A stretch of 44,566 bases of DNA from Candidatus Staskawiczbacteria bacterium (GCA_049513595.1 JBEKVX010000003.1:1-44566); one strand, 5' to 3'; numbered from the stretch's first letter, positions 17,621 through 35,176 are shown. A program made the numbers and translations. The notes: generated by a model from the letters alone, not told the origin.

Positions 17621-18343
17621 TTAAATATTAATTGCTCGCGAAACTTCCGTTAATTTATGCCATTCTTTCTGCGTTATTACAACCTCGGAATTTACCTCTT
17701 TCATAATTTCTTTTATCCAGCCAAAAATTTTATATCTTGCGTCAGTCCCTTTTGGGACTCTCACACTTATTGTTCCGTAATATAAATTATTTTTTTTATA
17801 ATTTTTATTTAATGGCTTAATAAAACTTTTGCCAAACCTTTCTATGGGAATGTTTGTTAGTTGCGACCAAAACTGTTTTATTTCTAAATCGTTTTGTTGA
17901 GGATAAATATTCAGCCAAGCTTTTAAATCTTTCGGCGCGATACCAAATATTTTTTCAAACCACCTAACCATAAATAAAATAAGATGAGGGTCAGAGTTTG
18001 TAATATTTAAGCCATTAGTTTTGCTTCCCTCTGCCCAATACAATGCCGCCCCCAAAATTTTATAGGTTTCTGCTGCAACAGGATTGTGGATTTCTTTTCC
18101 CGCTTCTTCTAATATTTTATCTATTTCCCTTTTTCTTCTTTCCTTTTGACTTTGCGCTCCTCTTGCCAAAATTGTTATGTTGTTAGTATAGAGCCGTTTT
18201 CTTTGCTCTTCTGTTAATAACACTTCCTTTAACCAATAACTTAACGTGCTTTTTGAAATGCTTAGTTTTTTTGCAATTTCTCCATAACTAAGCCCGTTTT
18301 TTCTAAGCTTTATTGCTTTTGTTTTTGAAAGATTATTTTTCAT
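17621..18343 (-). CDS. N-terminal HTH + single LAGLIDADG-like domain protein
   Basis: HTH (AIKLRKNGLSYGEIAKKLSISKSTLSYWL). GAALYWAEGS resembles the LAGLIDADG helix and is followed by ITNSDP, FW and YGT motifs. Confidence 0.65.
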   Translation of the reverse strand: MKNNLSKTKAIKLRKNGLSYGEIAKKLSISKSTLSYWLKEVLLTEEQRKRLYTNNITILARGAQSQKERRKREIDKILEEAGKEIHNPVAAETYKILGAALYWAEGSKTNGLNITNSDPHLILFMVRWFEKIFGIAPKDLKAWLNIYPQQNDLEIKQFWSQLTNIPIERFGKSFIKPLNKNYKKNNLYYGTISVRVPKGTDARYKIFGWIKEIMKEVNSEVVITQKEWHKLTEVSRAINI

Positions 18344-21396: not shown

Positions 21397-21424
21397 CATA
21401 AAATAATAAAATCAAAATTATTAA

Positions 21425-21475
21425 AAATTAGAAATTAGAAATTAGAAATTCCACTTTTGCGAAAGCAAAGTGTGG
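21425..21475 (+). repeat. (AAATTAG)x3.7 tandem repeat followed by a GAAA-loop hairpin
   Basis: AAATTAG AAATTAG AAATTAG AAATT, then CACTTTTGC-GAAA-GCAAAGTG. Confidence 0.7.
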
Positions 21476-21478
21476 TAG

Positions 21479-21552
21479 GGGCCTGTAGTAAAGTGGCATT
21501 ACGCCTCGTTCGCAACGAGGAGGCGGCAGTCCGATTCTGCCCAGGTCCACCA
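21479..21552 (+). tRNA. tRNA-Ala(CGC)
   Basis: GGGCCTG/CAGGTCC with G3-U70, CCTCG-TTCGCAA-CGAGG anticodon arm, encoded CCA. Confidence 0.92.
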
Positions 21553-22349
21553 TGAATCAAAGTTCAGAAGAATGTATAAAAATATTGATTGAATCGGAGT
21601 CGGTTTTTAAAAAAGCCGGCGAGCTTGCTGTAAAAATGCGCACCACTGCCGGCAAAAGAAATAAACACAATACCGGCGTGGCGGGAATTGACATTGTTAC
21701 TGAAGCCGATACTGCTGTGCAGGAATTTATTTTAACCGAAATGGCAAAAACTAAACTGGTCGAATGTGAATTAGTTGCCGAAGAAGACACACCATCGGTT
21801 TCAAAATTTAAGGGCACAAATGGATTGGTTTTGGCTTTAGACCCAATTGACGGCACTCTCATTTACGCCTCAACCGGCAGATTTTATTCAACAATCGTTA
21901 CCTTGCACAATAAAAAAGATATTTTATACACTTATTATAATTATCCAGAAATAAATTGGAGCAGAAGAATTTCGGGAAATAAAATTGAAGACTCCGGAAA
22001 TTTTCCGAAGATAAAAACAAAACCAGGGTTAAATTTAAAAAAAATAATTGTAACGTCAAAGCCGCAAACAAAAATTAATCCAGAAATTCTTAAAAAAATT
22101 AATGATGAAGGATACGAATTTAAAAAATTTAATAAAATTACAGACGAAGCAGTATCTTTTGCAACATTTTTTTCAGGAACAACAGCCGGTTATTATATGG
22201 AAACTCCAAATCCGTATGACGGGCTGGTTGCTTTGCACTATGGCCAAGTTAAAAAATTAAAAATTTATGGCGGCGTGGATATTTCAAAATTTGAAGTTGG
22301 CGACCACGGCCCACATTATTCGGGTTGGTATTTAGTCCTGAATAAATAA
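21552..22349 (+). CDS. Inositol monophosphatase family protein
   Basis: DIVTEAD..VQ, AEE, LDPIDGT, PYD motifs. Confidence 0.85.
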   Translation: MNQSSEECIKILIESESVFKKAGELAVKMRTTAGKRNKHNTGVAGIDIVTEADTAVQEFILTEMAKTKLVECELVAEEDTPSVSKFKGTNGLVLALDPIDGTLIYASTGRFYSTIVTLHNKKDILYTYYNYPEINWSRRISGNKIEDSGNFPKIKTKPGLNLKKIIVTSKPQTKINPEILKKINDEGYEFKKFNKITDEAVSFATFFSGTTAGYYMETPNPYDGLVALHYGQVKKLKIYGGVDISKFEVGDHGPHYSGWYLVLNK

Positions 22350-22353
22350 ATTT

Positions 22354-22367
22354 ATATCGCTACGCTA
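22354..22367 (+). repeat. Dispersed intergenic motif, copy 1 (ATATCGCTACGCTA)
   Basis: Exact 14-mer also at 32953 and 34522. Ends 9 nt before an ATG. Confidence 0.85.
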
Positions 22368-22376
22368 CGTAAACTT

Positions 22377-24272
22377 ATGGCAACAGAGAAAAATATAAAA
22401 ATACAAAAAGCAATTGTTTACCCAAGGGTCGGGCTAAAAGAAATTTTAGGCGCGATTTGGAATGGAATAAAACCGCAGAGGCGGCTGTTTTATATTTTGG
22501 TTGTTTCAATGATTTTGGGAAACATTGTTACAATTATCACCCCGCTTTTTTACAAACAATTTTTTGATATTATTGCCGCGCCCGGAGACAAGTCAGCTAT
22601 TGCGACAAAACTTTTTGTGCTGATTATTTATGTTTTGGTGTTTAACGCGCTATTTTGGCTGCTTTACCGCATTTCCACTTTGGCAAATAATTTTTACGAG
22701 CCAAAAGTAATGGCAAATTTAAAACAGCAGTCCTACGACCATTTAATGCAGCACTCTTATTCTTTTTTTGTAAATAATTTTGCCGGTTCCTTGGTGCAGA
22801 AAGTGAACAGATTTGCCAGGGCATTTGAAAGAATAACAGATGATTTGATTTGGAATTTATTGCCATTGTTTGTAAGAATTATTTCAATTGTCTTTGTTTT
22901 GTTTTTCATAAACAAATGGCTTGATTTGGTTTTGGTTGTTTGGATAGCTATATTTTTATCTTTTAATATCGGGTTTTCAAAATGGAAATTAAAATATGAT
23001 ATTAAGGCAGCTGAAATTGATTCAAAAGCAACTGGATATTTGGCTGACACAATCGGAAATCAAAACACAATACAATTTTTTAACGGATTTAAGTTTGAAT
23101 CGCAGGGATACAAAAAAGTTACAGATGAGCAGGCGGACATGACAAAACTTGCCTGGAATTTGGATGCTGTAATAGAAGGAGGCCAGGCATTTTTGAGCTT
23201 TATAATAGAATTTGTTTTATTCTTTTATGCAATAAAATATTGGCAGCAGGGGTTGATAACCATCGGTGTTTTTGTTTTGTTGCAGGCGTATGTTTTAAAT
23301 ATAATAAACCAGCTGTGGGGATTTACTCGCCTGGTGAGAGATGTTTATCAGGGCTATGCCGATGCAAAAGAAATGGTTGAAATTTTGCTTTTGCCCCACG
23401 AAATTGAGGATAAACTGGGGGCTAAAGAATTGGTTGTAAAAAATGGCGAAATTGATTTTAAGGATTTGACTTTTAGTTTCAATAAAGCGCGAGCAGTTTT
23501 AAATGATATTAATTTAACAATTAAGCCAGGAGAAAAAGTTGCATTGGTCGGGCCATCTGGCGCTGGTAAAACAACTTTTGTGCGACTGCTTTTGCGTTTG
23601 TATTCTGCAACTTCGGGAAAAATTTTAATTGACGGCCAAGATATCAGCGAAGTTGCACAAGAAAGTTTGAGAAAAAATATTTCAATGGTTCCGCAGGACC
23701 CGATTTTGTTTCACAGAACCTTGGCAGAAAATATTGCTTATGGAAAACGCGATGCATCAAAACAGGAAATTGAAAAAGCAGCCACACTGGCTCATTGCGA
23801 TGAGTTTATAAAGGACTTGCCACAGGGTTTAGAAACATATGTTGGCGAGCGCGGAATAAAATTGTCTGGCGGCGAACGTCAGCGCGTGGCAATTGCCAGA
23901 GCCATTGTAAAAAATGCGCCAATTTTGGTTTTAGACGAGGCAACTTCAAGCTTGGATTCAAATTCAGAAATGTTAATTCAGGATGCGTTAAATAATTTGA
24001 TGCAAAGCAAAACTGTTATCGTAATCGCCCACCGATTATCAACAATCCAAAAAATGGACAGAATTATTGTTATTGACGATGGAAAAATTATTGAGCAAGG
24101 CAGCCATTCAGAACTTTTGCAAAACGAAAATAGTTTGTACAAAAAACTTTGGGAATTGCAAGCCGGCGGATTTTTGAAATCAGAAAGCGAGAATGAAAAT
24201 AATGAAGAAGAATCGGAAGAAAATGATGAAGATGATTGGTCAAGCGGCGGCGCCAAAATGGTTAATTTTTAA
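22377..24272 (+). CDS. ABC exporter, fused permease/ATP-binding protein
   Basis: TM domain, then GPSGAGKT, LSGGERQR, LVLDEATSSLD, IAHRLST. Confidence 0.93.
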   Translation: MATEKNIKIQKAIVYPRVGLKEILGAIWNGIKPQRRLFYILVVSMILGNIVTIITPLFYKQFFDIIAAPGDKSAIATKLFVLIIYVLVFNALFWLLYRISTLANNFYEPKVMANLKQQSYDHLMQHSYSFFVNNFAGSLVQKVNRFARAFERITDDLIWNLLPLFVRIISIVFVLFFINKWLDLVLVVWIAIFLSFNIGFSKWKLKYDIKAAEIDSKATGYLADTIGNQNTIQFFNGFKFESQGYKKVTDEQADMTKLAWNLDAVIEGGQAFLSFIIEFVLFFYAIKYWQQGLITIGVFVLLQAYVLNIINQLWGFTRLVRDVYQGYADAKEMVEILLLPHEIEDKLGAKELVVKNGEIDFKDLTFSFNKARAVLNDINLTIKPGEKVALVGPSGAGKTTFVRLLLRLYSATSGKILIDGQDISEVAQESLRKNISMVPQDPILFHRTLAENIAYGKRDASKQEIEKAATLAHCDEFIKDLPQGLETYVGERGIKLSGGERQRVAIARAIVKNAPILVLDEATSSLDSNSEMLIQDALNNLMQSKTVIVIAHRLSTIQKMDRIIVIDDGKIIEQGSHSELLQNENSLYKKLWELQAGGFLKSESENENNEEESEENDEDDWSSGGAKMVNF

Positions 24273-24288
24273 AATAAAAAATAAAGTT

Positions 24289-24720
24289 ATGGAAGAAAAA
24301 CAAAGACCAAAAGTCGGAGTTGGCGTAATGATTTTCAAAGACGGTAAAGTTTTAATGGGTAAAAGAAAAAACGTTAATGGTGCCGGAGAATATGCGTGGC
24401 CCGGCGGGCATTTGGAAATTGGAGAATCTTTTGAATCTTGCGCAAAGCGGGAAACTATGGAAGAAGCTGGAATAGAGATTGATAATGTTCGTTTTTTGCG
24501 TTTAATGAATTTTTTTAAATCCCCGGACAGACATTATGCAGACATAGGATTGATGGCTGATTGGAAAAGCGGCGAGCCAAAAGCTATGGAACCAGAAAAG
24601 TGCGAAGGTTGGGGTTGGTATGATATAGATAATTTACCGCAACCACTATTTAGTACTATTCCGAGTTATTTAGAAGCCCTTAAAACAGGGAAAAATTATT
24701 TTGATATAATTAAAAAATAA
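24289..24720 (+). CDS. NUDIX hydrolase (NUDT15/MutT-like)
   Basis: RPKVGVGV, PGGHLE.GESFE.CA.RE..EEAG, EPEKCEGW.W. Likely start ATG 24289. Confidence 0.9.
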   Translation: MEEKQRPKVGVGVMIFKDGKVLMGKRKNVNGAGEYAWPGGHLEIGESFESCAKRETMEEAGIEIDNVRFLRLMNFFKSPDRHYADIGLMADWKSGEPKAMEPEKCEGWGWYDIDNLPQPLFSTIPSYLEALKTGKNYFDIIKK

Positions 24721-24725
24721 AAATT

Positions 24726-25682
24726 ATGGAAAATGAAAATATATCATTACCGAAAAGAAATATACCAAGGGATTTATTTTTACATCTCTTGGCAATTATT
24801 ACGCTTTATTGGTCGGCAGTAAGTTTTGTGACCTTAATCTGGCAGTTTATAAATAATTTTTTTCCAGATGTTTTAAACAATTATTATAATGGCATGTTAG
24901 AGTTAATTAGATTTTCAGTTTCTGCCATAATTATTGTTTTTCCGGTGTTTATTATTGTTTCTTTTTACTTGAATAAAATTTATGCCAGAGAATATGCTGT
25001 TAGGGAATCAAAAATAAGAAAATGGCTGCTTTATTTGACTCTTTTTATTACTTCTTTGGTTATTATTGGCGACTTAATTTTTGTCATTAATACTTTTTTA
25101 GGCGGTGAAATTACTACAAGATTTATCCTGAAAGCTTTGTCAGTGCTGGCAGTTGCCGGAGTAATTTTTGGATATTATTTGGATGACGTTAGGCGCGAAA
25201 TCCCGACAAAATCAGCAAAATATTTTGCATGGGGTTCTGGCATTTTGGTTTTGGTTGTTGTGGTTGCGGCATTTTTTGTGGTTGGCACGCCAATAACTGC
25301 GCGCTTGATTCAGTTTGACCAGCAAAAAATTTCCGATTTACAAAATATCCAATCGCAGATTGTAAATTACTGGCAAAAAAAACAAATTTTGCCTAATTCC
25401 CTTTCCGATTTAACCGACCCGATTTCTGGATTTAAAGCCCCCACAGATTCTCCGACAAAAAATCCTTACGAATATAATATAAAAGACAAAACAAATTTAT
25501 CTTTTGAATTGTGCGCAAATTTTAACAAGCCATCAACTAGCCAGGATATAAGCAACACGCCAATGCCACTCGCCGGCCTGCCAGGAAGTTATAATCAAAA
25601 CTGGACTCATGCATCCGGCCGAGTTTGTTTTGAAAGAACAATTGATAAGCAATTATATCCGCCGCTAAATAAAACAAAATAA
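24726..25682 (+). CDS. DUF5671-like membrane protein
   Basis: FLHLL.I.TLY, IRKWL.YLTL, GE.T.RF.LK, D...ISDL..I, FELCA.F pattern of a CPR family. Confidence 0.65.
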   Translation: MENENISLPKRNIPRDLFLHLLAIITLYWSAVSFVTLIWQFINNFFPDVLNNYYNGMLELIRFSVSAIIIVFPVFIIVSFYLNKIYAREYAVRESKIRKWLLYLTLFITSLVIIGDLIFVINTFLGGEITTRFILKALSVLAVAGVIFGYYLDDVRREIPTKSAKYFAWGSGILVLVVVVAAFFVVGTPITARLIQFDQQKISDLQNIQSQIVNYWQKKQILPNSLSDLTDPISGFKAPTDSPTKNPYEYNIKDKTNLSFELCANFNKPSTSQDISNTPMPLAGLPGSYNQNWTHASGRVCFERTIDKQLYPPLNKTK

Positions 25683-26060
25683 ATGGGTACAAGAGAATTG
25701 GGAAAAAAGGGAGAAGATTTGGCTTGTGAATATCTTGTGAAGAACGGGTATAAAATATTGGGGAGAAATTGTGTTTACAGCATAGGGGAAATTGATATTA
25801 TCGCGAGGAAAAGATGGGGATTATTTGTTAATAAAACAATTCATTTTGTTGAGGTAAAAAGTTTGAGCTACAAAGGCGATTTTTTTCCAGAGGAAAAAGT
25901 TGATTATAAAAAACAAAATAAATATAAACGTTTGGCGGAAATTTGGCTGGAAAAAAATGAGTTTCCACAAAATTATCCGTGCCAGGTGGACATAATCGCA
26001 GTTTCAATGGATAATGGAGAAAATAAAATTAAACATTTCGAAAATATTATTAGCAATTAA
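25683..26060 (+). CDS. yraN: YraN family (UPF0102) endonuclease-like protein
   Basis: G..GEDLA..YL...GYKIL.RN....GEIDIIA...FVEVK. Confidence 0.88.
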   Translation: MGTRELGKKGEDLACEYLVKNGYKILGRNCVYSIGEIDIIARKRWGLFVNKTIHFVEVKSLSYKGDFFPEEKVDYKKQNKYKRLAEIWLEKNEFPQNYPCQVDIIAVSMDNGENKIKHFENIISN

Positions 26061-26065
26061 AAAAC

Positions 26066-26848
26066 ATGGATCCCAACAAAACAGAAACACGGGGAAATAA
26101 GTCGCCCGAAACAAAAGCCGAAGAAGAGCTTTTACAATTTGGGCTTCAGGTTGTGCCGGAAAATATTAAAGCAATAGTAGATTTGCAAAAAGCTATGCAA
26201 CATCCTGCGGGTTATGGGGATATAGTCAAATCAGATTCTTTGGAAGATATTGGAAAAGCCATGCGGAAAAGAAAGATAAAGCAAGTTATTCACATAGAGG
26301 ATGCAAGTTTGTGGATTCATTGCAAGCTCGCGATGAAACTAGTTGAGTTTTTGCCTATTCCAGAAGAAAAAAAAGCCGACCTAAAATTAATTATGCTTTA
26401 CCATGATTTAGGCAAGGTTGGAATGAAAGATACGCAGGAAATCAGACATATACAAAGAAAAGAAATAGACAGGGGCAAATTATATAAGGTGGCAAAAGGG
26501 CATGCTTTGGAAAGACCTCAGGATATAGAAAATGGTTTTAGGGCAAACGGCATAAGCGGCCGCAAGCTGGAAGTTTTTATGAATGTTGTGCAAAACCACA
26601 TGGAAACTTCTCTGTCTGAAATGACCGGCCCCAAATTGGCAAAATTATTTGAAGGTTTTGGCAAAACAGATGACGAAAGAAAAGAGGTCGCAGAACTATT
26701 GGCATTGGCGATACAGGTTGATGGCAACGCCTGCATGCAGGTTGCATTTAACGAAAGCGGAGAATTGCAAAACCCAAAAAAAGAAAATAGAACCGGAGCA
26801 GATTTTGATAAAATTTGGGCAAAATATTTAGAAGCCAAAGAAAAATAA
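26066..26848 (+). CDS. HD-domain protein
   Basis: H.ED.SLW.H...YHDLGK...GHA...NHM...D. Confidence 0.65.
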   Translation: MDPNKTETRGNKSPETKAEEELLQFGLQVVPENIKAIVDLQKAMQHPAGYGDIVKSDSLEDIGKAMRKRKIKQVIHIEDASLWIHCKLAMKLVEFLPIPEEKKADLKLIMLYHDLGKVGMKDTQEIRHIQRKEIDRGKLYKVAKGHALERPQDIENGFRANGISGRKLEVFMNVVQNHMETSLSEMTGPKLAKLFEGFGKTDDERKEVAELLALAIQVDGNACMQVAFNESGELQNPKKENRTGADFDKIWAKYLEAKEK

Positions 26849-26851
26849 AAG

Positions 26852-26937
26852 TTGACAAGCGTTATTGGTTTTGCTAAACTGATTTAATAATCAAGTAATG
26901 AATTAATTTGTCCGATGGAAATCGGACTTTTATTTTT
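26852..26937 (+). promoter_or_regulatory. nusA promoter and leader terminator-like hairpin
   Basis: TTGACA, 17-nt spacer, TG-n-TAAACT. Then GTCCGAT-GGAA-ATCGGAC-TTTTATTTTT at 26910-26937. Confidence 0.7.
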
Positions 26938-26953
26938 ATAAACAAATATTTTT

Positions 26954-28333
26954 ATGGATATAAAAAGTTTTAAGGGAGCTTTAGCTCAAATCGCAGAGGA
27001 AAGGGGCATTACGCCAGAAAAAGTTATTGAAACTATTGAGGCGGCAATTGCCACTGCCTACAAAAAGGACTATGGCCAAAAAGGGCAGAAAATTAAGGCA
27101 AAATTCAACCCGGTGTCGGGAGATGTTAAGTTTTGGCAGGTAAAATTGGTTGTTGACGACTCAATGCTTTACACAGAAAAAGAAATTGAAGAAATGAAAG
27201 AAAGAAAAGAAATTCCGCAGGACGAAGCAAGAGCTGGCGAAGAACCGCCCAAAAAATATGTTTTTAATCCAGAAAAACATATTATGTTTGAAGACGCCAA
27301 AAAAGATTATCCAAAAATCAAAGTTGGCGAAGAAATTGAAATTCCTTTAATTTCAAAACAGGATTATGGCAGAATCGCCGCGCAAACAGCAAAGCAGGTT
27401 ATTTTGCAAAAAATCAGAGAGGCGGAAAAAGAAACAATCTCTATTGAATATAAATCAAAGGAAGGTGAAATTGTTTCGGGAATTGTGCAGAGAATTGAAG
27501 GCCACACGGTTTTTGTGGACATTGGAAAGACATTGGGAATTTTAAACAGAGAAGAACAAATTCCAGGAGAATTTTACAGGCCAGGTCAGCGTCTGAAACT
27601 TTATATTTTAAAAGTGGAAGACACGCCAAAGGGCTCGGTTGTTATGCTTTCAAGAGCATATCCAAAATTAATTTCAAAATTATTTGAACTGGAAGTTCCC
27701 GAAGTTGCTTCTGGCGTTGTTGTTATAAAAGCAATTGCGCGCGAGCCGGGATTTCGCACAAAAATTGCAGTTGTTTCCAACGAGGAAGGCGTTGACCCGA
27801 TTGGCGCCTGCGTTGGTCAGCGTGGAACAAGAATTATGGCAGTTATAAACGAGTTGGGCGGAGAAAAAATTGATGTAATTGCTTTTGAAGAAAAGCCGGA
27901 AAAGTTTATTGCAAATGCGCTGGCTCCGGCAAAAATTGTTGATGTAAAAGTTGAAGAAAAAAATACAGCAGTTGTTTTTGTTCCAGCAGACCAGTTGTCT
28001 TTAGCTATTGGAAAAGACGGCAGAAATGTCCGCTTAGCAGCGCAACTAACCGGCTGGAAAATAGACATTAAAACAAAAGATGTGCCGGCAGAAGAAGCTG
28101 AGGGAGAAGAAGAATCAGAGGGAAAAGAAAGCGAAGAAAAGAAACCCGCCATCGCTTCCGCCTCCGATAAATCTTCGGCGGACAAGAAATCTAAGGCGGG
28201 CAAGGCAAAAAAATCTAAAAAAACGAAAACAAAAAAAGTTGGAATCGATGGCGAAGCAGTTGAAGAATCTCCAAGCGAAGTGGATGCAGAAACAGAAGAA
28301 TTGCCAGCCGACAACTCAACCGAAGAAAAATAA
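26954..28333 (+). CDS. nusA: Transcription termination factor NusA
   Basis: GRIAAQTAKQVI.Q..REAE, LFELEVPE, AREPG.RTK, DPIGACVG.RG, AIGK.G.NVRLA. Confidence 0.97.
   Translation: MDIKSFKGALAQIAEERGITPEKVIETIEAAIATAYKKDYGQKGQKIKAKFNPVSGDVKFWQVKLVVDDSMLYTEKEIEEMKERKEIPQDEARAGEEPPKKYVFNPEKHIMFEDAKKDYPKIKVGEEIEIPLISKQDYGRIAAQTAKQVILQKIREAEKETISIEYKSKEGEIVSGIVQRIEGHTVFVDIGKTLGILNREEQIPGEFYRPGQRLKLYILKVEDTPKGSVVMLSRAYPKLISKLFELEVPEVASGVVVIKAIAREPGFRTKIAVVSNEEGVDPIGACVGQRGTRIMAVINELGGEKIDVIAFEEKPEKFIANALAPAKIVDVKVEEKNTAVVFVPADQLSLAIGKDGRNVRLAAQLTGWKIDIKTKDVPAEEAEGEEESEGKESEEKKPAIASASDKSSADKKSKAGKAKKSKKTKTKKVGIDGEAVEESPSEVDAETEELPADNSTEEK
28145..28204 (+). repeat. Two nested 30-bp palindromic elements in frame within nusA
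   Basis: Outer CCCGCCATCGCT|AAATCTAAGGCGGGCAAG is interrupted by inner TCCGCCTCCGATAAATCTTCGGCGGACAAG (28157-28186). Confidence 0.75.
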
Positions 28334-28351
28334 TTAAATTTATTTTTAATT

Positions 28352-29089
28352 ATGCCAAATCCAGAAAATCGCGAGCCGCAAAGAGATCCTTTTATATATA
28401 AGGATAGTATTCTGCCGGGCACAGAAGATTCTATTGATTACAAAGAAGAAAAATTGAGAGAGCTACAAAATAATCCAAATTTAATTGTTAGGAAAGAATC
28501 TTTTGTGACGAGACCGGATGATCCAAACGGTTTGGAAAAAAATATTCAAGTTTTCTCGGATCATAAAAAATATTTTAATGAATTGAGAGAAAAATACGGA
28601 ATTAATATTCCAAATTTTGATTTAGTAATTGGAGAAACTAAAAAGGGTTCACCTGCGGTTTTCATTGTAACCGATAAAATAGATGGCAAGAGCCTAGATA
28701 GAATGGAAACCTTTCCCGAAGAAGCTGAGAAAAAATTTGAAGATTTTTATTTACGATTATTGCAGGCACTATACGATGCATTTAAAAATAAAACAGCCTT
28801 TTTAATTGACATCGGGGAAAACAATTTCATGTATGGACATAGATTAAAAAAAGAAGGCGAAGAAAATAATTTTTTCGTAACCGATGTCGGGTCTCGTAGT
28901 CTCTATGGTATTATGAGTCCTGAGCGCGAACATATTAAAATCCATTATGACGCATTCCACAAAAACGTGGTTAGGAAATATAGAAAACTTTTTGATTCCT
29001 GTAAAAATAAATTTAACCCGTCATACAATTTTGATAAAATCGAGGAAAAATTAAAAGAGATCGAAGAATATGTCGACGTTGAAGAATAA
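28352..29089 (+). CDS. Hypothetical protein, probable protein-kinase-like fold
   Basis: IVTDKIDGKSL (hinge-like), DIGENNFMYG (DxxxxN), FVTDVG (DFG-like). Confidence 0.5.
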   Translation: MPNPENREPQRDPFIYKDSILPGTEDSIDYKEEKLRELQNNPNLIVRKESFVTRPDDPNGLEKNIQVFSDHKKYFNELREKYGINIPNFDLVIGETKKGSPAVFIVTDKIDGKSLDRMETFPEEAEKKFEDFYLRLLQALYDAFKNKTAFLIDIGENNFMYGHRLKKEGEENNFFVTDVGSRSLYGIMSPEREHIKIHYDAFHKNVVRKYRKLFDSCKNKFNPSYNFDKIEEKLKEIEEYVDVEE

Positions 29090-29111
29090 AAAATAATTTA
29101 ATTAGTAATTA

Positions 29112-29195
29112 AATGATTATATTGTTAAATGGTTAAATTGTTAAACTGATTTTTAAAAACAATTTATCAATATAGCAGTATAGCAATTTAGCAAC
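29112..29195. repeat. Two degenerate 8-bp tandem arrays in inverted orientation
   Basis: TATTGTTA/AATGGTTA/AATTGTTA units, then CAATTTAT/CAATATAG/CAGTATAG/CAATTTAG units, abutting the hppA ATG. Confidence 0.65.
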
Positions 29196-31172
29196 ATGAG
29201 TCTAATATATTTTCCGATAATTGTTTCGTTGTTTGCGATTGCGTTTGTGTGGTTTCTGGTTTTGCAAATCAGAAAAGCACCGGCCGCCGGAGATAAAGCT
29301 GTGGCAATTACAGCTGCGGTACAAGAGGGCGCAATGGCGTTTTTAAAAAGACAATACAAAACAGTCGGCATTGTAGGGGTCGTAATTTTTATTTTATTAT
29401 TTTTATTGGGATGGAAAATTGCAATTGGATTTTTAATTGGAGCTGTTTTGTCTGGTGTTTCTGGCTTTATTGGAATGATTGTTTCGACGCAGGCAAACAC
29501 AAGAGTTGCTGAAAGCGCGAAAAGGGGCTTGGCAAAGGCATTGGATATTTCTTTTAAGGGTGGATTGATTACTGGCTTAATGGTTGTCAGTTTAGGTTTG
29601 TTATCGGTTTCAGGATATTATTTTTTAACTGGAATTTCGGGATTAATTGGTTTGGGATTTGGCGCGTCGCTCATTTCTGTTTTTGCCAGAGTGGGCGGAG
29701 GAATTTACACGAAAGCAGCCGACGTAGGAGCGGACTTGGTTGGAAAAGTTGAAAAAGGAATTCCAGAAGACGACCCAAGAAATCCGGCAGTTATTGCCGA
29801 CCAGGTTGGCGATAATGTTGGCGACTGCGCTGGCATGGCAGCAGATATTTTTGAAACTTATGCTGTCACCACAGTTGCCACAATGATTTTAGGAGCGCTT
29901 TTATTTCCGCGAAGCCCGCAATTTATTTTGTTGCCGTTAATTTTGGGAAGCGTTTCGATTTTAACTTCTATTATTGGCAGTTATTTTGTGAAACTCGGAA
30001 AATCGCAAAATATAATGGGAGCAATGTATAAAGGAATTGCAGCAACGGTTGTTTTATCGGCAATTGCTTTTTATCCTGTAATTTCAAAATTAATGGCAGG
30101 ACAGGCGATTTCTGTAATAAATTTGTGGGCTTCTACTTTAGTGGGCTTGGTAATTACAATTGGAATGTTTATCATCACAGAATATTATACTTCAAAAAAA
30201 TATAATCCGGTAAAATCAATTGCCAAGGCATCGGAAACTGGCCACGCCACAAATATTATCCGCGGAATTGGTTTGGGAATGCAGTCAACAGCATATCCTG
30301 TTTTGTTAATTGCGCTTGGAACAATTTTAAGTTTTTGGTTAGCAGGAATTTATGGAGTGGCGCTGGCGGTTATGGCAATGTTGTCGGTTTCTGGAATTGT
30401 TGTTGGAGTTGACGCTTATGGACCAATTACAGACAACGCTGGTGGAATTGCAGAAATGGCGGGAATGCCAGAAGACATCAGAAAAATTACAGACGCGCTG
30501 GACGCAGTTGGCAACACAACAAAAGCAGTTACAAAGGGCTACGCAATTGCGTCAGCCGGCCTGGCGGCATTGGTTTTGTTTTCTGCATATTCAGAAAAGG
30601 TTGGAGTAAGCGGAATAACATTTTCTTTAAACGACCCAAAAGTTATTGCCGGACTTTTAATTGGCGGGCTTCTTCCCTATTTGTTTGCATCATTTTTAAT
30701 GGGAGCTGTTGGAAAAACAGCTGGAAAAGTTGTTGAAGAAGTTCGCAGGCAATTTAAAAATATTGTTGGCTTAATGGAAGGAACTGCAAAACCAGAATAT
30801 GGAAAATGCGTTGATATTGTTACAAAAGCAGCCATAAAAGAAATGATGGTGCCAGCTTTAATTCCAATTGCTGCTCCAATTTTAGTTGGATTTATTTTGG
30901 GACCCGAAGCTCTTGGCGGATTGTTAATTGGCGCAATTGTTACTGGATTATTTGTGGGAATTTCAATGACCACCGGAGGAGCCGCCTGGGATAATGCCAA
31001 AAAATACATTGAGGGCGGAGCTTACGGAGGCAAAGGAAGTTTTGCCCACCAAGCCGCAGTCACCGGCGACACCGTAGGCGACCCGTACAAAGACACCGCC
31101 GGCCCAGCCATTAACCCAATGATTAAAGTGTTGAATATTGTCGCGCTCCTAATTGTCGCGTTTCTAGTTTAA
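29196..31172 (+). CDS. hppA: Membrane-bound ion-translocating pyrophosphatase
   Basis: [54 protein letters not shown]. Confidence 0.96.
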
Positions 31173-31211
31173 CGAATAGCCCAAAGCCAAAAACTTTGGG
31201 CTATTAAATTT

Positions 31212-32486
31212 ATGAAAACAAATTTGGAGCCCAAAAAGGCCCAATGGCTTAACAAATACAGACAGAATATTGAGCTGGAACCATTTTTTCAAAGAGGAAC
31301 AGTTTGGAGTGATGACAAAAAGAGATATTTTGTTGATTCTCTTTTAAAGGGTTGGGGAACTCCCAAGATTTTTCTTTGGGAGATAGAAAAAGATTCTTAT
31401 GCCTGTTTAGATGGTAAGCAAAGACTTACAAGTTTGTTTAAGTTTATGGCCGATGAATTGGCATTAAAAGAAGAATATTCTACTGGTTTTGGCGGCAAAA
31501 AATATTCTGAACTTCCTGTACCCATACAAGATGCCCTTGATAATTATGAGTTTTCAATAGAATTTTTGAGCGAAGCGACAGATGATGAAGTAATAGAATT
31601 GTACAAAAGACTACAAGGGGGCACGCCTTTAAATTTTGGTGAGAAGCTTTTTGCTATGACGGGAAAAATGAACGAATTTATAAAAAACAAATTGGTCAAT
31701 AAAAATTTTTTTAAGGAAAAGATATCGCTCCCCAATACACGATATTCTCACTATGCTATTTGTGCTCAATTATCGTTATTGGTGATAAAAGGAGCAAAAG
31801 AAGATTTAAAATTGAAGAACTTAGAAAAATTTTTTAAAGATTACAGTAGCTTTAATTACAAAAGTCCCGAAGCTAACAAAATTTTCGACGTTTTAGGGCG
31901 CCTAGAAAAAGCTTTTCCAGGCAACAATGATCCTGCTCTTAGGAATCGCGCGAATGTCATTTCTATTTTTTATCTTTTATCAGATATAGCAACTCGAGGC
32001 GATATATCCGGGAAAGAAAAGGAAATAGGGTCTTTCTTCAAAAAATTTGTAAAAGATATTCAAAAAGAATTTGAAAAAAGACCAGAAGAGCGCGATCCCG
32101 AGATATTGAGCTATCAATCTGCGGTTACACAGGGAGCCGATAAAATTAAATCCATAAACATAAGGCACAATATTTTATTAGAAAAACTTGCTACTAAGAA
32201 CAAATTTTTTTATAGCCTTATTCATCCAATTTCGCCTATGGATAGGTTTATTAAAATTTATAATCTCGCAAGAATAAGGTTAAAACTAAAAAACCCAGAA
32301 AGATTTGATGAGTGGCTTATTAAAAATAAGGGTCTTTTAGATATAAAATGCCCAGCATCTCGTGGTAAAAAAGAAACATTTATTGGCCATATTCGTCATT
32401 GTTTTTCTCATCCAGAGCATGGCAATTTTACATTGAGAGACATCCAAAAAGGAAGTAAAATTTTGAACGAAATATTGAAAAAATAA
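31212..32486 (+). CDS. DUF262 (GmrS/ParB-like) domain protein with C-terminal RxxxxH motif
   Basis: PFFQRGTVW, LDGKQRLTS, YKRLQGGTPL. C-terminal IRHCFSHPE. Confidence 0.75.
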   Translation: MKTNLEPKKAQWLNKYRQNIELEPFFQRGTVWSDDKKRYFVDSLLKGWGTPKIFLWEIEKDSYACLDGKQRLTSLFKFMADELALKEEYSTGFGGKKYSELPVPIQDALDNYEFSIEFLSEATDDEVIELYKRLQGGTPLNFGEKLFAMTGKMNEFIKNKLVNKNFFKEKISLPNTRYSHYAICAQLSLLVIKGAKEDLKLKNLEKFFKDYSSFNYKSPEANKIFDVLGRLEKAFPGNNDPALRNRANVISIFYLLSDIATRGDISGKEKEIGSFFKKFVKDIQKEFEKRPEERDPEILSYQSAVTQGADKIKSINIRHNILLEKLATKNKFFYSLIHPISPMDRFIKIYNLARIRLKLKNPERFDEWLIKNKGLLDIKCPASRGKKETFIGHIRHCFSHPEHGNFTLRDIQKGSKILNEILKK

Positions 32487-32540
32487 AAAATAAATTTATG
32501 GTGGACAAAAAATAAATAAATAAAATTAAATTTTTAAAAT

Positions 32541-32936
32541 ATGAGCGCATTTAATTGGTATTCGCAATTAGTCAAACCATTTTGGGCGCCGCCGGCTTGG
32601 CTTTTTGCGCCGGTCTGGACAATTTTGTATGTTTTAATAATTATTTCTTTTGGATTTGTTTTTTACAAAACCATAAAAAAGAAATTGTCGTGGAAGGTGT
32701 CTTTGCCGTTTTTGCTGAATTTGATTTTTAATTTTGCTTTCTCGCCGATTCAGTTTGGATTGCGAAACAATTTTTTGGCTGCCATTGATATTATTTTGGT
32801 GCTGGCAACCCTTGTTTGGGCAATGATTGCGATTTACCGCCGCGTGCGATGGGTATTTTGGGCAAACGTGCCGTATTCGGCGTGGGTAACTTTTGCGACA
32901 ATTTTACAACTTACAGTTACATATCTTAATCACTAA
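32541..32936 (+). CDS. tspO: TspO/MBR family protein
   Basis: WY..L.KP.WAPP.WLF.PVW..LY, PY.AW..FA..L. Confidence 0.9.
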   Translation: MSAFNWYSQLVKPFWAPPAWLFAPVWTILYVLIIISFGFVFYKTIKKKLSWKVSLPFLLNLIFNFAFSPIQFGLRNNFLAAIDIILVLATLVWAMIAIYRRVRWVFWANVPYSAWVTFATILQLTVTYLNH

Positions 32937-32952
32937 ATTAAAAAATAAATTC

Positions 32953-32966
32953 ATATCGCTACGCTA
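32953..32966 (+). repeat. Dispersed intergenic motif, copy 2
   Basis: ATATCGCTACGCTA, ending 9 nt before ATG 32976. Confidence 0.85.
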
Positions 32967-32975
32967 CTTAAATTT

Positions 32976-33422
32976 ATGGTAAAAGAAAGATTAAAAGCAG
33001 TTCCGTCGTCATATTTGGTGCTGATAAAAGATGGAAAGATTTTGCTTTTGAGAAGGTTTAACACGGGCTACGAAGATGGAAATTATAGTTTTCCTGCCGG
33101 ACATGTTGATAAAGGCGAAAATTTTACGCAATGCATAGTCAGAGAGGCAAAAGAAGAAATTGGAGTAAATTTAAATCCAAAAGATTTGAAGGTTGTTCAT
33201 GTTATGCACAGAAATTCGGGCGAGGTAGATATAGGAAATAGAATTGATGTATTTTTCACGGCCGATAAATGGGAGGGAAATATTGAAAATAAAGAACCGA
33301 ATAAATGTGATGATTTGTCGTGGTTCGACTTAAATAATTTGCCTGAAAATATAATTCCATATATTAGGCAGGCGATAGATTGTATAAAAAATAAAATAAT
33401 TTACAGCGAATTCGGCTGGTAA
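32976..33422 (+). CDS. NUDIX hydrolase
   Basis: RRFNTGYEDG, PAGHVD.GE......REAKEEIG, EPNKCDDL.WF. Confidence 0.9.
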   Translation: MVKERLKAVPSSYLVLIKDGKILLLRRFNTGYEDGNYSFPAGHVDKGENFTQCIVREAKEEIGVNLNPKDLKVVHVMHRNSGEVDIGNRIDVFFTADKWEGNIENKEPNKCDDLSWFDLNNLPENIIPYIRQAIDCIKNKIIYSEFGW

Positions 33423-33445
33423 AATAATAATTAAAAAATAAAATT

Positions 33446-33601
33446 ATGGTAAAAGGAAATTTTATCGGCGCGGCAATTGTCGCAATAATCTACACGGTTT
33501 ATATTTTAGTGCATCCGTTTTCGCAAAAATGGCAAATGGTGTTAATATTGGTGGTTCTTAATGCTTTAACTATTGTGTTGATGTCTTTTGCATTCAAGTA
33601 A
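33446..33601 (+). CDS. Small 2-TM membrane protein (51 aa, below the ORF-track cutoff)
   Basis: MVKGNFIGAAIVAIIYTVYILVHPFSQKWQMVLILVVLNALTIVLMSFAFK fills the gap with a host-style AT-rich leader. Confidence 0.6.
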   Translation: MVKGNFIGAAIVAIIYTVYILVHPFSQKWQMVLILVVLNALTIVLMSFAFK

Positions 33602-33616
33602 AAAGTTAATTTAGAA

Positions 33617-33895
33617 ATGAAAAATAAATTTATGGAGGATGATATTAAAAAAGAAATTGAACTGATAAAGGAAAGGAATAAAAGGGTTGAGGCGGATAAG
33701 GCGTGGGAAACCAGCGGCACGCGTGTTTTTTCGATTGTGGCGATGACATATATTATTACTTCAATTGTTTTTTATTTTATCGGCGTTAAAAATTATTTGT
33801 TGAGTGCGCTTATTCCAACTGTTGGATTTTATCTTTCAACGCAATCGCTCCCCTTTATTAAAAAATGGTGGATTAAAAAATTTGTAAAAAAATAA
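33617..33895 (+). CDS. Small membrane protein
   Basis: ERNKRVEADKAWETS.TR plus two TM helices. The start may be 33632. Confidence 0.75.
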   Translation: MKNKFMEDDIKKEIELIKERNKRVEADKAWETSGTRVFSIVAMTYIITSIVFYFIGVKNYLLSALIPTVGFYLSTQSLPFIKKWWIKKFVKK

Positions 33896-33896
33896 A

Positions 33897-34517
33897 ATGA
33901 TAAAAGCAGTTATATTTGATTATGGAGGAGTATTAAAAGAACCGCACGGACTTTATGTGGATATTGCTGATTTGTACAAACTTCCGAAAGAATATGTTTC
34001 AAGCAAACGCGAAGAAGCAAAGCCAGTTATGGAGTTGTTTGATAAGGGCCTTTTAAGCGAGGAAGATTTTTGGGAAAAAGTTTCTAAAATACTCGGTCAT
34101 CCCATACCCAAAGATATAACAAAAACCGTGCGAGAAGTTATGAGGGAAACTTATAAAAAAGATTTTGCGTTTTTTCCCGAAATGCTGGAATTTAACAAAG
34201 AGTTGCGCGCTCGCGGAATTAAAACCGCGGTTTTGTCTAACATTTTAATTTTTCAGGCAGAAGTGATAAGGGAAAAAGAAGGATATAAAGATTTTGACGC
34301 GGTTATTTTGTCTTACCAGGAAGGTTTGCGCAAGCCAGGAGATTTGGATTTTTATCATTTAGCTCCAAAAAGATTGGGGGTAAAGCCGGAAGAATGTATT
34401 TTTATAGACGACAAAGAAGAAAATTTGCCTCCGGCTCAGTCCATTGGAATAAAAACAGTTTTGTTTAAAAATTCCCAGCAAGCTATAAAAGAAATTTTAG
34501 AAATTATTAAAAAATAA
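33897..34517 (+). CDS. HAD family phosphatase
   Basis: IKAVIFDYGGVL, LSN, RKP, FIDD. Confidence 0.9.
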   Translation: MIKAVIFDYGGVLKEPHGLYVDIADLYKLPKEYVSSKREEAKPVMELFDKGLLSEEDFWEKVSKILGHPIPKDITKTVREVMRETYKKDFAFFPEMLEFNKELRARGIKTAVLSNILIFQAEVIREKEGYKDFDAVILSYQEGLRKPGDLDFYHLAPKRLGVKPEECIFIDDKEENLPPAQSIGIKTVLFKNSQQAIKEILEIIKK

Positions 34518-34521
34518 TTTT

Positions 34522-34535
34522 ATATCGCTACGCTA
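34522..34535 (+). repeat. Dispersed intergenic motif, copy 3
   Basis: ATATCGCTACGCTA, ending 11 nt before ATG 34547. Confidence 0.85.
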
Positions 34536-34546
34536 AATTAAAATTC

Positions 34547-35176
34547 ATGGCAAAAGATAAAAAGAAAAAATTAAATAAGGACTTGGATGTTGCGCATTTG
34601 ACGCGCTTTTTGTTTGAGGTTGGCACTATGCGAAAAATTGCCCGCATACATCGCCAGGTTTTGTTTACAGACGATTTGTCGGACAATATCGCCACGCATT
34701 CTTTTAGGGTGGCTTTTATCGGATTTGTTTTGGCAAAAATGGAGGGAGTTGACTGGCAAAAAGTTGTTATGATGTGCCTTTTGCACGACACAGGCGAAAG
34801 CCGCAGCAACGACCATAATTGGGTTCACAAAAGATATGTCAGCGACAACGAAAATCAAATTTTAAATGAGCAGCTTGGGTCTTTGCCGTTTCCCGAACTT
34901 GCCCGGCTCGGCCGAGAATATGTTGAGCGGAAAACCAAGGAAGCCATTGTTGCCAAAGATGCGGATGTTCTTGACCAGGTTTTGCTTTTGCGAGAATACG
35001 AGTGGCAGGGCAATAAAGAGGCGGCTATTTGGCTTGTGGGAAAGCACAAAAGACCTTATGCTTATTTGGATTACACAAAAACAGAGAGCGCCAAAATTCT
35101 TGGCAAGGAAATCTACGACCAGAATCCTTCAAGCTGGTGGGACAATTTGTGGACTCGTCACCGCAAAACAAACTGA
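34547..35176 (+). CDS. HD domain hydrolase (YfbR/HDDC2-like)
   Basis: NIATHSFRV, LLHDTGE, AKDAD.LD. Confidence 0.85.
   Translation: MAKDKKKKLNKDLDVAHLTRFLFEVGTMRKIARIHRQVLFTDDLSDNIATHSFRVAFIGFVLAKMEGVDWQKVVMMCLLHDTGESRSNDHNWVHKRYVSDNENQILNEQLGSLPFPELARLGREYVERKTKEAIVAKDADVLDQVLLLREYEWQGNKEAAIWLVGKHKRPYAYLDYTKTESAKILGKEIYDQNPSSWWDNLWTRHRKTN

Follow-up and report, generated by a model that had tools for sequence, protein, structure and literature searches.

The stretch of DNA described here is contig C3 (44,566 nucleotides (nt); GCA_049513595.1, JBEKVX010000003.1:1-44566) of a Candidatus Staskawiczbacteria genome of 765 kb in 51 contigs with 38% G+C, and the whole of it is referred to below as the window. 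The subject is a short dispersed repeat found directly before start codons, which consists of an invariant 14-nt core, ATATCGCTACGCTA, and a canonical 9-nt tail, CGTAAACTT, and thus makes up a full unit of 23 nt. Three copies of the unit are present in the window, each lying between two genes that were assigned with Pfam:

21552..22349, + strand: gene of the inositol-monophosphatase (IMPase) family, its stop codon ending 4 nt before unit copy 1
22354..22376, + strand: unit copy 1, core ATATCGCTACGCTA with canonical tail CGTAAACTT, abutting the ATG at 22377
22377..24272, + strand: ABC transporter gene with membrane and ATPase domains
32541..32936, + strand: gene of the TspO/MBR family
32953..32975, + strand: unit copy 2, core with tail CTTAAATTT (two differences from the canonical tail), abutting the ATG at 32976
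32976..33422, + strand: NUDIX hydrolase gene
33897..34517, + strand: HAD hydrolase gene, its stop codon ending 4 nt before unit copy 3
34522..34546, + strand: unit copy 3, core with an A/T-rich 11-nt tail, AATTAAAATTC, abutting the ATG at 34547
34547..35176, + strand: HD-domain phosphohydrolase gene

These copies had been noted in a preliminary description of the window as three exact, same-strand occurrences of a 14-bp core, placed 9-11 nt before ATG within the gene pairs IMPase>ABC, TspO>NUDIX and HAD>HD. A pattern search and rereading of the flanks confirmed the occurrences at 22354, 32953 and 34522, the distance from core to ATG was measured as 9, 9 and 11 nt for copies 1, 2 and 3, and the Pfam assignments agree with the gene pairs. 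The end of the upstream stop codon is separated from the motif by 4, 16 and 4 nt, respectively. The window is expected to contain 0.06 copies of the core, at least three copies were found in none of 100 shuffles, and a search tolerating up to two mismatches gave no match in the window beyond the three exact ones. The core, which contains the direct repeat CGCTA-CGCTA, is exact as first described, but it is not the whole repeat, since the exact 23-mer of core and CGTAAACTT recurs genome-wide and in relatives.

The core occurs in the genome 15 times exactly, 18 times at up to one mismatch and 21 times at up to two mismatches. The genome-wide count with strand and ATG position bears out the link to gene starts: a start codon in the same orientation lies 7-12 nt downstream of 13 of the 15 exact copies (12 ATG and one TTG), and the remaining two are situated 40 nt before khpA and 18 nt past an in-frame ATG of a small membrane protein. 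The 27-mer ATATCGCTACGCTACGTAAACTTATGG is common to six of the genome copies. Sub-words of the core are found almost solely within unit copies, which indicates that the family is discrete and not degenerate. Near-exact decay is rare, with 15 exact copies versus two real one-mismatch copies; a further one-mismatch match at C12:5708 lies within the holA coding sequence and was taken as chance. About 2% of the genes have the unit, and the genes downstream of it are unrelated, including ABC transporters, NUDIX, HD, DnaB, DUF2229, EF-Ts, a release factor, S20, SodA, L22, L5, KhpA and small unknowns.

We also note features of two of these genes. The 242-aa release factor (G000:C10:9019-9744; L014:3019-3744, - strand) has its own extended -10 as well as a unit copy, and begins at position 96 of the PCRF profile, so that it is without domain 1; a full-length release factor, with an open frame of 330 aa, is present on contig C8. 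At sodA (G000:C13:1018-1090, L016), the unit is inside a possible in-frame N-terminal extension, the ATG of which lies 10 nt upstream of the core, and the conserved LPKLPY start would require a TTG codon 9 nt past the core.

The nucleotides around the junction of unit and start codon are biased. Position -1 is T in 77% of 91 unit sites, compared with 42% of genes. At position +4, the 84 distinct unit contexts have G in 60, A in 23, C in one and T in none; G or A is present in 83 of the 84, whereas it is found in 74% of 668 open reading frames (ORFs), the baseline being G 30%, A 43%, C 13% and T 13%. The second codon is GCA in 27 of the 84 contexts versus a baseline of 5.7%. The unit and the start region are unstructured, the folding energies of -1 to -3.2 kcal/mol being no better than those of shuffles. 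A scan of the window with Rfam returned only 8 tRNAs, with no family match for the unit, and a scan of the 13 loci with copies not preceding an ORF likewise returned tRNAs only.

The 3' end of the 16S rRNA of this genome is GGATCATTTTTTT, the gene ending in ...GTGGATCATTTTTTTAAAAAATG, and CCTCC is absent. On contig C10 of this genome (G000:C10, L001, 2395-2420), this end reads GGATCA and then TTTTTTTAAAAAA in place of CCTCCTT. The loss of the anti-Shine-Dalgarno (anti-SD) sequence in a subgroup of Parcubacteria is reported in sections of a published study (PMC9297842). The sequences before 665 ORF starts are poor in G (7-17%), with A reaching 45-59%, and start regions are A-rich genome-wide at -3 to -13; one idea drawn from these sequences is that the poly-U tail of the 16S rRNA may pair with A-rich leaders. 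In 34 of 657 genes an extended -10 ends 6-9 nt before the ATG, as would be expected of leaderless mRNAs. The description of the motif as neither palindromic nor Shine-Dalgarno (SD)-like holds, as neither its folding nor its complementarity to 16S rRNA exceeds that of shuffles; the core pairing with 16S rRNA that had been considered earlier was therefore not borne out. The match of the 16S gene itself (G000:C10:12616-15439) to the bacterial model is split into two parts by ~960 nt, suggestive of an intervening sequence.

Outside this genome, the exact 14-mer was found in 14 of the 25 other species of the genus, with 52 copies in total and 1-10 per genome, and in none of 16 genomes from other families of the same order; a reversed control pattern gave no match. 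The genomes rich in the unit are the present one, G003, G005, G008, G017, G019 and G023. Among the matches listed in a scan of a wide collection with the 14-mer, the multi-copy records are those of Candidatus Staskawiczbacteria, and most records are single hits in unrelated taxa, which were taken as chance. The sequence CGTAAACTTATG is met almost solely joined to the core. The exact 23-mer is present in 88 metagenome stretches, and ATG follows it directly in 77 of the 80 metagenome loci that were read (52 ATGG, 24 ATGA and one ATGC). Six of these 80 loci have tandem arrays of 2-4 exact units with a 23-nt period, and tandem units are also observed in G005, G007, G003 and the present genome. An exact unit followed by ATGG also separates a head-tail-adaptor-like gene from a Neck1-like gene in one provirus, represented by two records; in one of these (L291, 106-462), phage structural genes surround a reverse-transcriptase fragment (PHROG 1423) that lies ~1 kb upstream from the unit. 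Judged from these sequences, the unit is a non-palindromic, orientation-specific dispersed repeat of one Candidatus Staskawiczbacteria (Patescibacteria/CPR) genus and its proviruses.

In the relatives, 74 copies were collected at up to one mismatch. An ORF starting with ATG lies within 35 nt downstream of 49 of them, at exactly 9 nt in 21 cases; four others precede a short or cut ORF and ten are miscellaneous. The annotation of downstream genes in relatives covered 46 of 106 references, 32 of which have an NCBIfam name. Translation genes account for 14 of the 46 distinct downstream genes (S3, S8, S9, S14, S16, S20, L11, L23, EF-G, RsgA, Map and three aaRS or aaRS-like genes, LeuRS, AspRS and PheS/PheS-related), against a baseline of ~12% that is an estimate and not a computed value. 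In an orthologous pair from G003 and G005, the 23-mer is identical and the flanks look clearly diverged by eye. G022 has a single variant unit, ATATCGCGATTTTA with the canonical tail. At this locus (G022:C12:24255-24292, L257), the reading frame that opens at the ATG after the variant unit ATATCGCGATTTTACGTAAACTT runs for only 9 more codons before a stop. These codons are also found in metagenome locus L393, at the end of the sequence that directly precedes the unit, and look like a gene end, which points to a deletion or rearrangement that stops at the unit.

Comparison of junctions among species reveals empty and filled forms of the same sites. Among the rpsT genes of 25 genus genomes, the unit is present only in this genome (two units) and in G003 (one unit with one mismatch); in the other genomes the order is -35, 17 nt, -10, 9-23 nt and ATG. 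Metagenome locus L353 has the rpsT promoter and leader of the G022 type, then two units, then ATG, and is thus a clean filled form of the empty site in G022. The NUDIX junction reads ...aaaaaataaattt|ATGG in G022, where the bar marks the point at which 23 nt more are present in the window. The gap between the IMPase-family gene and the ABC gene is 7 nt without a unit in G010 versus 27 nt in the window, the difference being the 23-mer directly before ATG; this adjacency without the unit indicates that the gene and the unit arrived separately. The IMPase-family gene is found in 3 of 26 genus genomes, and in G022, G006 and G002 the tRNA-Ala gene is followed directly by the ABC gene. At khpA, TATAAT, a short gap and then AAAGGTCGCAG are found in all species, and a 23-nt insert (core with ATCGCGATT) is present only in this genome, at the inferred transcription start 40 nt from ATG. 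Since the insert is confined to this genome, the khpA copy was rejected as a conserved master copy.

Three further features of the window lie near these genes. Within 21479-22349, which spans tRNA and gene, the ATG of the IMPase-family gene begins at the last base of tRNA-Ala(cgc) as placed by ARAGORN, the tRNA end given by Rfam being 3 nt earlier. A tandem 8-nt repeat (attagaaa x4; 21418-21450) stands immediately upstream of this tRNA. A GmrSD-N-like gene (type IV restriction; 31212-32486) is located between the H+-pyrophosphatase gene and the TspO gene.

A survey of the tuf-S10-spc operon covered 514 junctions in 25 genomes, with up to 23 junctions per genome from tuf>rpsJ to adk>map. The spacers are short, with a median of 9 nt; 298 of 493 are at most 12 nt, and 104 of 493 are at least 40 nt. 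The unit occurs nine times in the operon, at nine different junctions in six species, and all nine copies are forward (9:0). Species without the unit have short empty gaps of 1-12 nt at those junctions. The unit starts at most 6 nt after the stop codon of the upstream gene in 22 of 89 copies, and an extended -10 ends 6-8 nt before the first base of the unit at 16 of 132 distinct unit sites, where the unit would therefore be the entire leader. The simplest rule consistent with these sequences would be insertion between position -1 and the A of ATG, in which the unit becomes a spacer when it falls after a stop codon and a 23-nt leader when it falls after the -10 box of a leaderless gene.

Other species-specific small inserts are numerous at the operon junctions and include hairpin elements and A/T-rich tandem repeats. 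In operon loci L293-L316 and in G000:C30, these inserts include hairpin elements with TCGCT in both arms, a TTAATTCCGCAGAATTACAG... element and the A/T-rich tandem repeats, and they add up to 200 nt between neighboring ribosomal-protein genes. The unit was considered as the empty form of hairpin repeats with TCGCT feet (G016, G012, G003); this was rejected, as no filled form with unit-like flanks was found in this genome, and the resemblance is only a lead. We also note that the rpsJ>rplC (S10-L3) spacer is conserved, with a length of 100-150 nt, in every species read (...GATAGTTAAC...TAACAACATTGCC...GGGCA...GCCC...TTTTAGTTAA), and may be a structured leader or attenuator.

The explanation that we tentatively favor is that the unit is a copy-pasted, unstructured, non-SD leader or intercistronic spacer of mRNA, which is read by a conserved trans factor. 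New copies arise species by species and are placed directly before the A of ATG, after position -1, or, at khpA, at the inferred transcription start. Each copy thereby becomes the whole intercistronic spacer after a stop codon or the whole 5' leader of a formerly leaderless gene, and transcription would in the latter case start at the first base of the unit. In the mRNA, the unit would act as a portable, unstructured, non-SD leader, the invariant core of which would be recognized by a trans-acting factor, protein or RNA, that is conserved in the genus. This factor would support or control initiation at the adjoining AUG in a lineage without anti-SD. The presence of an identical sequence at non-orthologous sites in many species implies that something conserved reads it, which may be an mRNA or DNA partner or a copying enzyme. 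A role in mRNA initiation is suggested by the strict orientation in the operon, the fixed join to ATG, the bias at +4 and in the second codon, the absence of structure, the bias to translation genes and the loss of anti-SD. A translation-level binding site for a protein or small RNA was the second of two readings in the preliminary description, and it remains the best one, as an inference. The larger claim, in which the unit represents a new kind of bacterial translation-initiation signal, that is, a sequence-specific non-SD leader with a dedicated trans factor that spreads like a mobile element and frees leaderless or coupled genes for independent initiation, is rather unlikely.

Several observations weigh against a leader that acts in mRNA. 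The unit places C at -3, as do only 9% of genes, and at the sodA and C15 copies an in-frame ATG upstream of the motif makes the starts ambiguous. The best duplex of the 14-nt core with 16S rRNA is -14.8 kcal/mol versus -13.1 +/- 1.6 kcal/mol for shuffles, a comparison that covered only the core and 16S. Seven of the 74 copies in relatives are reversed and lie 9-24 nt before ATG (pgk, tsaD-like, pyrG-like and others), where the reverse strand of the unit and the flank ATT give TAGCGTAGCGATATAAT, a -10 box (TATAAT). Another four of the 74 are on the stop codon of a Cys-rich gene in convergent orientation, and the same RNA sequence cannot act at either of these classes of site. The distribution is also patchy: G022 and G006, the nearest genomes by S20 identity, are without the core (none at up to two mismatches in G022 and one two-mismatch hit in G006), in contrast to the 15 copies here, which is odd for a needed expression signal. 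Finally, decay is seen in some orthologous copies, at 1-3 of the 23 positions (L216 vs L218 and L206 vs L214).

The main rival is a selfish or neutral mini-insertion, which we regard as possible, if on the unlikely side. The unit would then be a sequence of 21-23 nt that is copied to new sites by an enzyme acting in trans or through microhomology-templated copying at T|ATG(G) and has no function of its own. Copies would persist only in the few non-coding bases before the starts of a very compact genome, and the A-rich tail ending in CTT would keep the gene translatable. The copy number of 0-15 among congeneric species, the absence of any shared junction among the nine operon occurrences, the tandem arrays of exact units, the many other small repeats inserted at operon junctions of the genus and the decay of some copies are all consistent with such an origin. 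So are the reverse copies, which would be kept where they rebuild a -10 box, and the preference for T at -1, as expected for a TA or T|AT target. A TA target-site duplication (TA|...|TA) can be read in the flanks of the 77% of the 91 sites with T at -1, but not in those of the remaining 23%; as a copying route, a TA or T|AT target and microhomology at T|ATGG are leads only. No mobilizing enzyme was found. Reverse transcriptase is absent from this genome, as is any match to the Y1 transposase (PF01797), and across the genus neither the Y1 transposase, present in 14 of 25 relatives, nor the HTH_23/HTH_28 protein encoded in the window (17621-18340), also present in 14 of 25, follows the copy number. 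The unit has no hairpin and no terminal inverted repeats, as its ends, TATCGC... and ...AAACT, do not read as inverted copies of each other. Furthermore, the 9:0 orientation in the operon, the scarcity of decayed copies in this genome and the enrichment before translation genes, whose high expression should lead to the removal of any burden, are not expected of such an insertion, and the identity of the sequence across species needs a reader.

A quite improbable alternative is that the 14-bp core, with its CGCTA-CGCTA repeat, is an operator, at which a DNA-binding regulator, situated at +1 to +14 or over the -10, represses transcription or blocks the elongating polymerase. The core is found in both orientations near promoters: it begins 6-8 nt after an extended -10 at the 16 sites mentioned above and at the inferred +1 of khpA, the seven reverse copies overlap a TATAAT box, and tandem arrays could give cooperative binding. 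However, the 22 copies that begin within 6 nt of an upstream stop are inside operons with no promoter in sight, and any -35/-10 pair within 25 nt is present in only 22 of 89 copies. The 9-nt tail, the ATG and position +4 are conserved together with the core, which a 14-bp operator leaves unexplained. The sites are exact and not degenerate, and they are non-orthologous, with no conserved regulon.

That the unit serves as a promoter element, with its -10-like hexamer (TACGCT or TAAACT) starting leaderless or near-leaderless transcripts even within operons, is very improbable. The core lies at a short and fairly constant distance from ATG, TACGCT as read from the sequence keeps T1, A2 and T6 of the -10 consensus, and promoters of the leaderless type are common in this genome. 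Nevertheless, TACGCT is 10 nt from ATG at the modal spacing, which is too long for a start at the A of ATG, and copies in relatives show spacings anywhere between 3 and 35 nt. A conserved -35 is missing, the ATATCGC part would fall in the spacer, and a search of the forward unit for sigma-70 -35/-10 hexamers at 16-18 bp found none. Canonical promoters just upstream of many copies would instead start transcription at the first base of the unit.

The other reading in the preliminary description was an integron-like recombination site or scar for the shuffling of single-gene cassettes. In its favor, the three window copies precede accessory genes, the sporadic IMPase-family gene separates tRNA-Ala and ABC genes that are direct neighbors in G022, G006 and G002, and the codons after the variant unit of G022 are shared with metagenome locus L393. 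This reading is largely refuted and highly improbable: the IMPase>ABC adjacency is present in G010 with a 7-nt gap and no unit, no attC-type hairpin was found, and the breakpoints in gene order that had been proposed at the motif are not observed at the junctions compared, the order being intact at the nine operon junctions, rpsT, khpA and IMPase>ABC, with the promoters of rpsT and khpA retained as well. What survives of it is lineage-specific insertion, as opposed to an inherited site.

Relict spliced leaders are known in dinoflagellates, in which a leader joined to mRNA is copied back into DNA. A comparable relic of RNA-level addition, with a 23-nt leader joined to mRNA 5' ends and copied back, is barely credible here: the position of the unit at the inferred transcript 5' end at khpA and the 16 promoter-proximal sites, the relict-like tandem arrays, the bias to highly expressed genes and the unit in a provirus with a reverse-transcriptase gene would agree with it, but this genome, the richest in copies, has no reverse transcriptase, no leader-RNA gene was found, and operon-internal copies would require mRNAs processed to a 5' end at AUG, of which there is no sign.

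Among known systems, the unit comes closest to the start-associated sequence (SAS) of Cluster K mycobacteriophages, in the portions of its description considered here (Pope et al. 2011, PMC3203893). SAS (13 bp) and the unit (14-23) are alike in being short, asymmetric, exact repeats placed a few bases before the starts of unrelated genes, with near-uniform orientation, rare reverse copies, a preference for ATG and an upstream stop that often touches the repeat; in both, the function is unknown and a binding partner has been proposed. In contrast to the unit, SAS as presented in those portions holds an AGGAG SD core and can pair with 16S, and it is confined to phages and largely conserved with the gene family, whereas the unit is cellular, occupies non-orthologous sites and forms tandem arrays. 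The sequence of the unit is unrelated to the SAS consensus 13-mer with AGGAG.

Correia and RPE elements are small intergenic repeats of REP/MITE type. The REP/REPIN and MITE-type repeats, as treated in parts of PMC8049555, resemble the unit in being short and dispersed, in filling the extragenic gaps of compact genomes and in their lineage-specific copy number. These repeats, however, are palindromic or have terminal inverted repeats and depend on RAYT or a transposase, whereas the unit has no structure and no detectable enzyme here and is tied to starts and to gene orientation. Reused or mobile promoters, to the extent covered in excerpts of PMC3575422, likewise place near-identical upstream regulatory DNA before unrelated genes of one genome, but they are whole promoters of tens to hundreds of bases, and the unit lies downstream of the promoter or within operons and has no promoter hexamers in its forward orientation. 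The unit shares with the SD sequence its position 7-12 nt before the start codon, but it is not complementary to the 16S 3' end, which in this genome is without CCUCC, and is present on so few genes. No match to the 14-mer, its reverse complement or its RNA form was found in the papers searched, and no such motif turned up in the literature on SD/anti-SD, leaderless or translation initiation in CPR, judged from the listings.

How start codons are chosen in bacteria without anti-SD is an open question, and the unit is a discrete, exact element at start codons, including those of ribosomal-protein genes, for which sister species have separate gains, placed at different junctions of one operon. 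A selfish unit would to our knowledge be among the smallest unstructured dispersed repeats known, and would show that the base pair ahead of ATG is all the free space that these genomes offer. A unit that recruits or gates ribosomes would provide a handle on initiation in CPR and a defined RNA bait for the partner. Either way, the unit marks very recent genome change and is usable as a strain-level marker.

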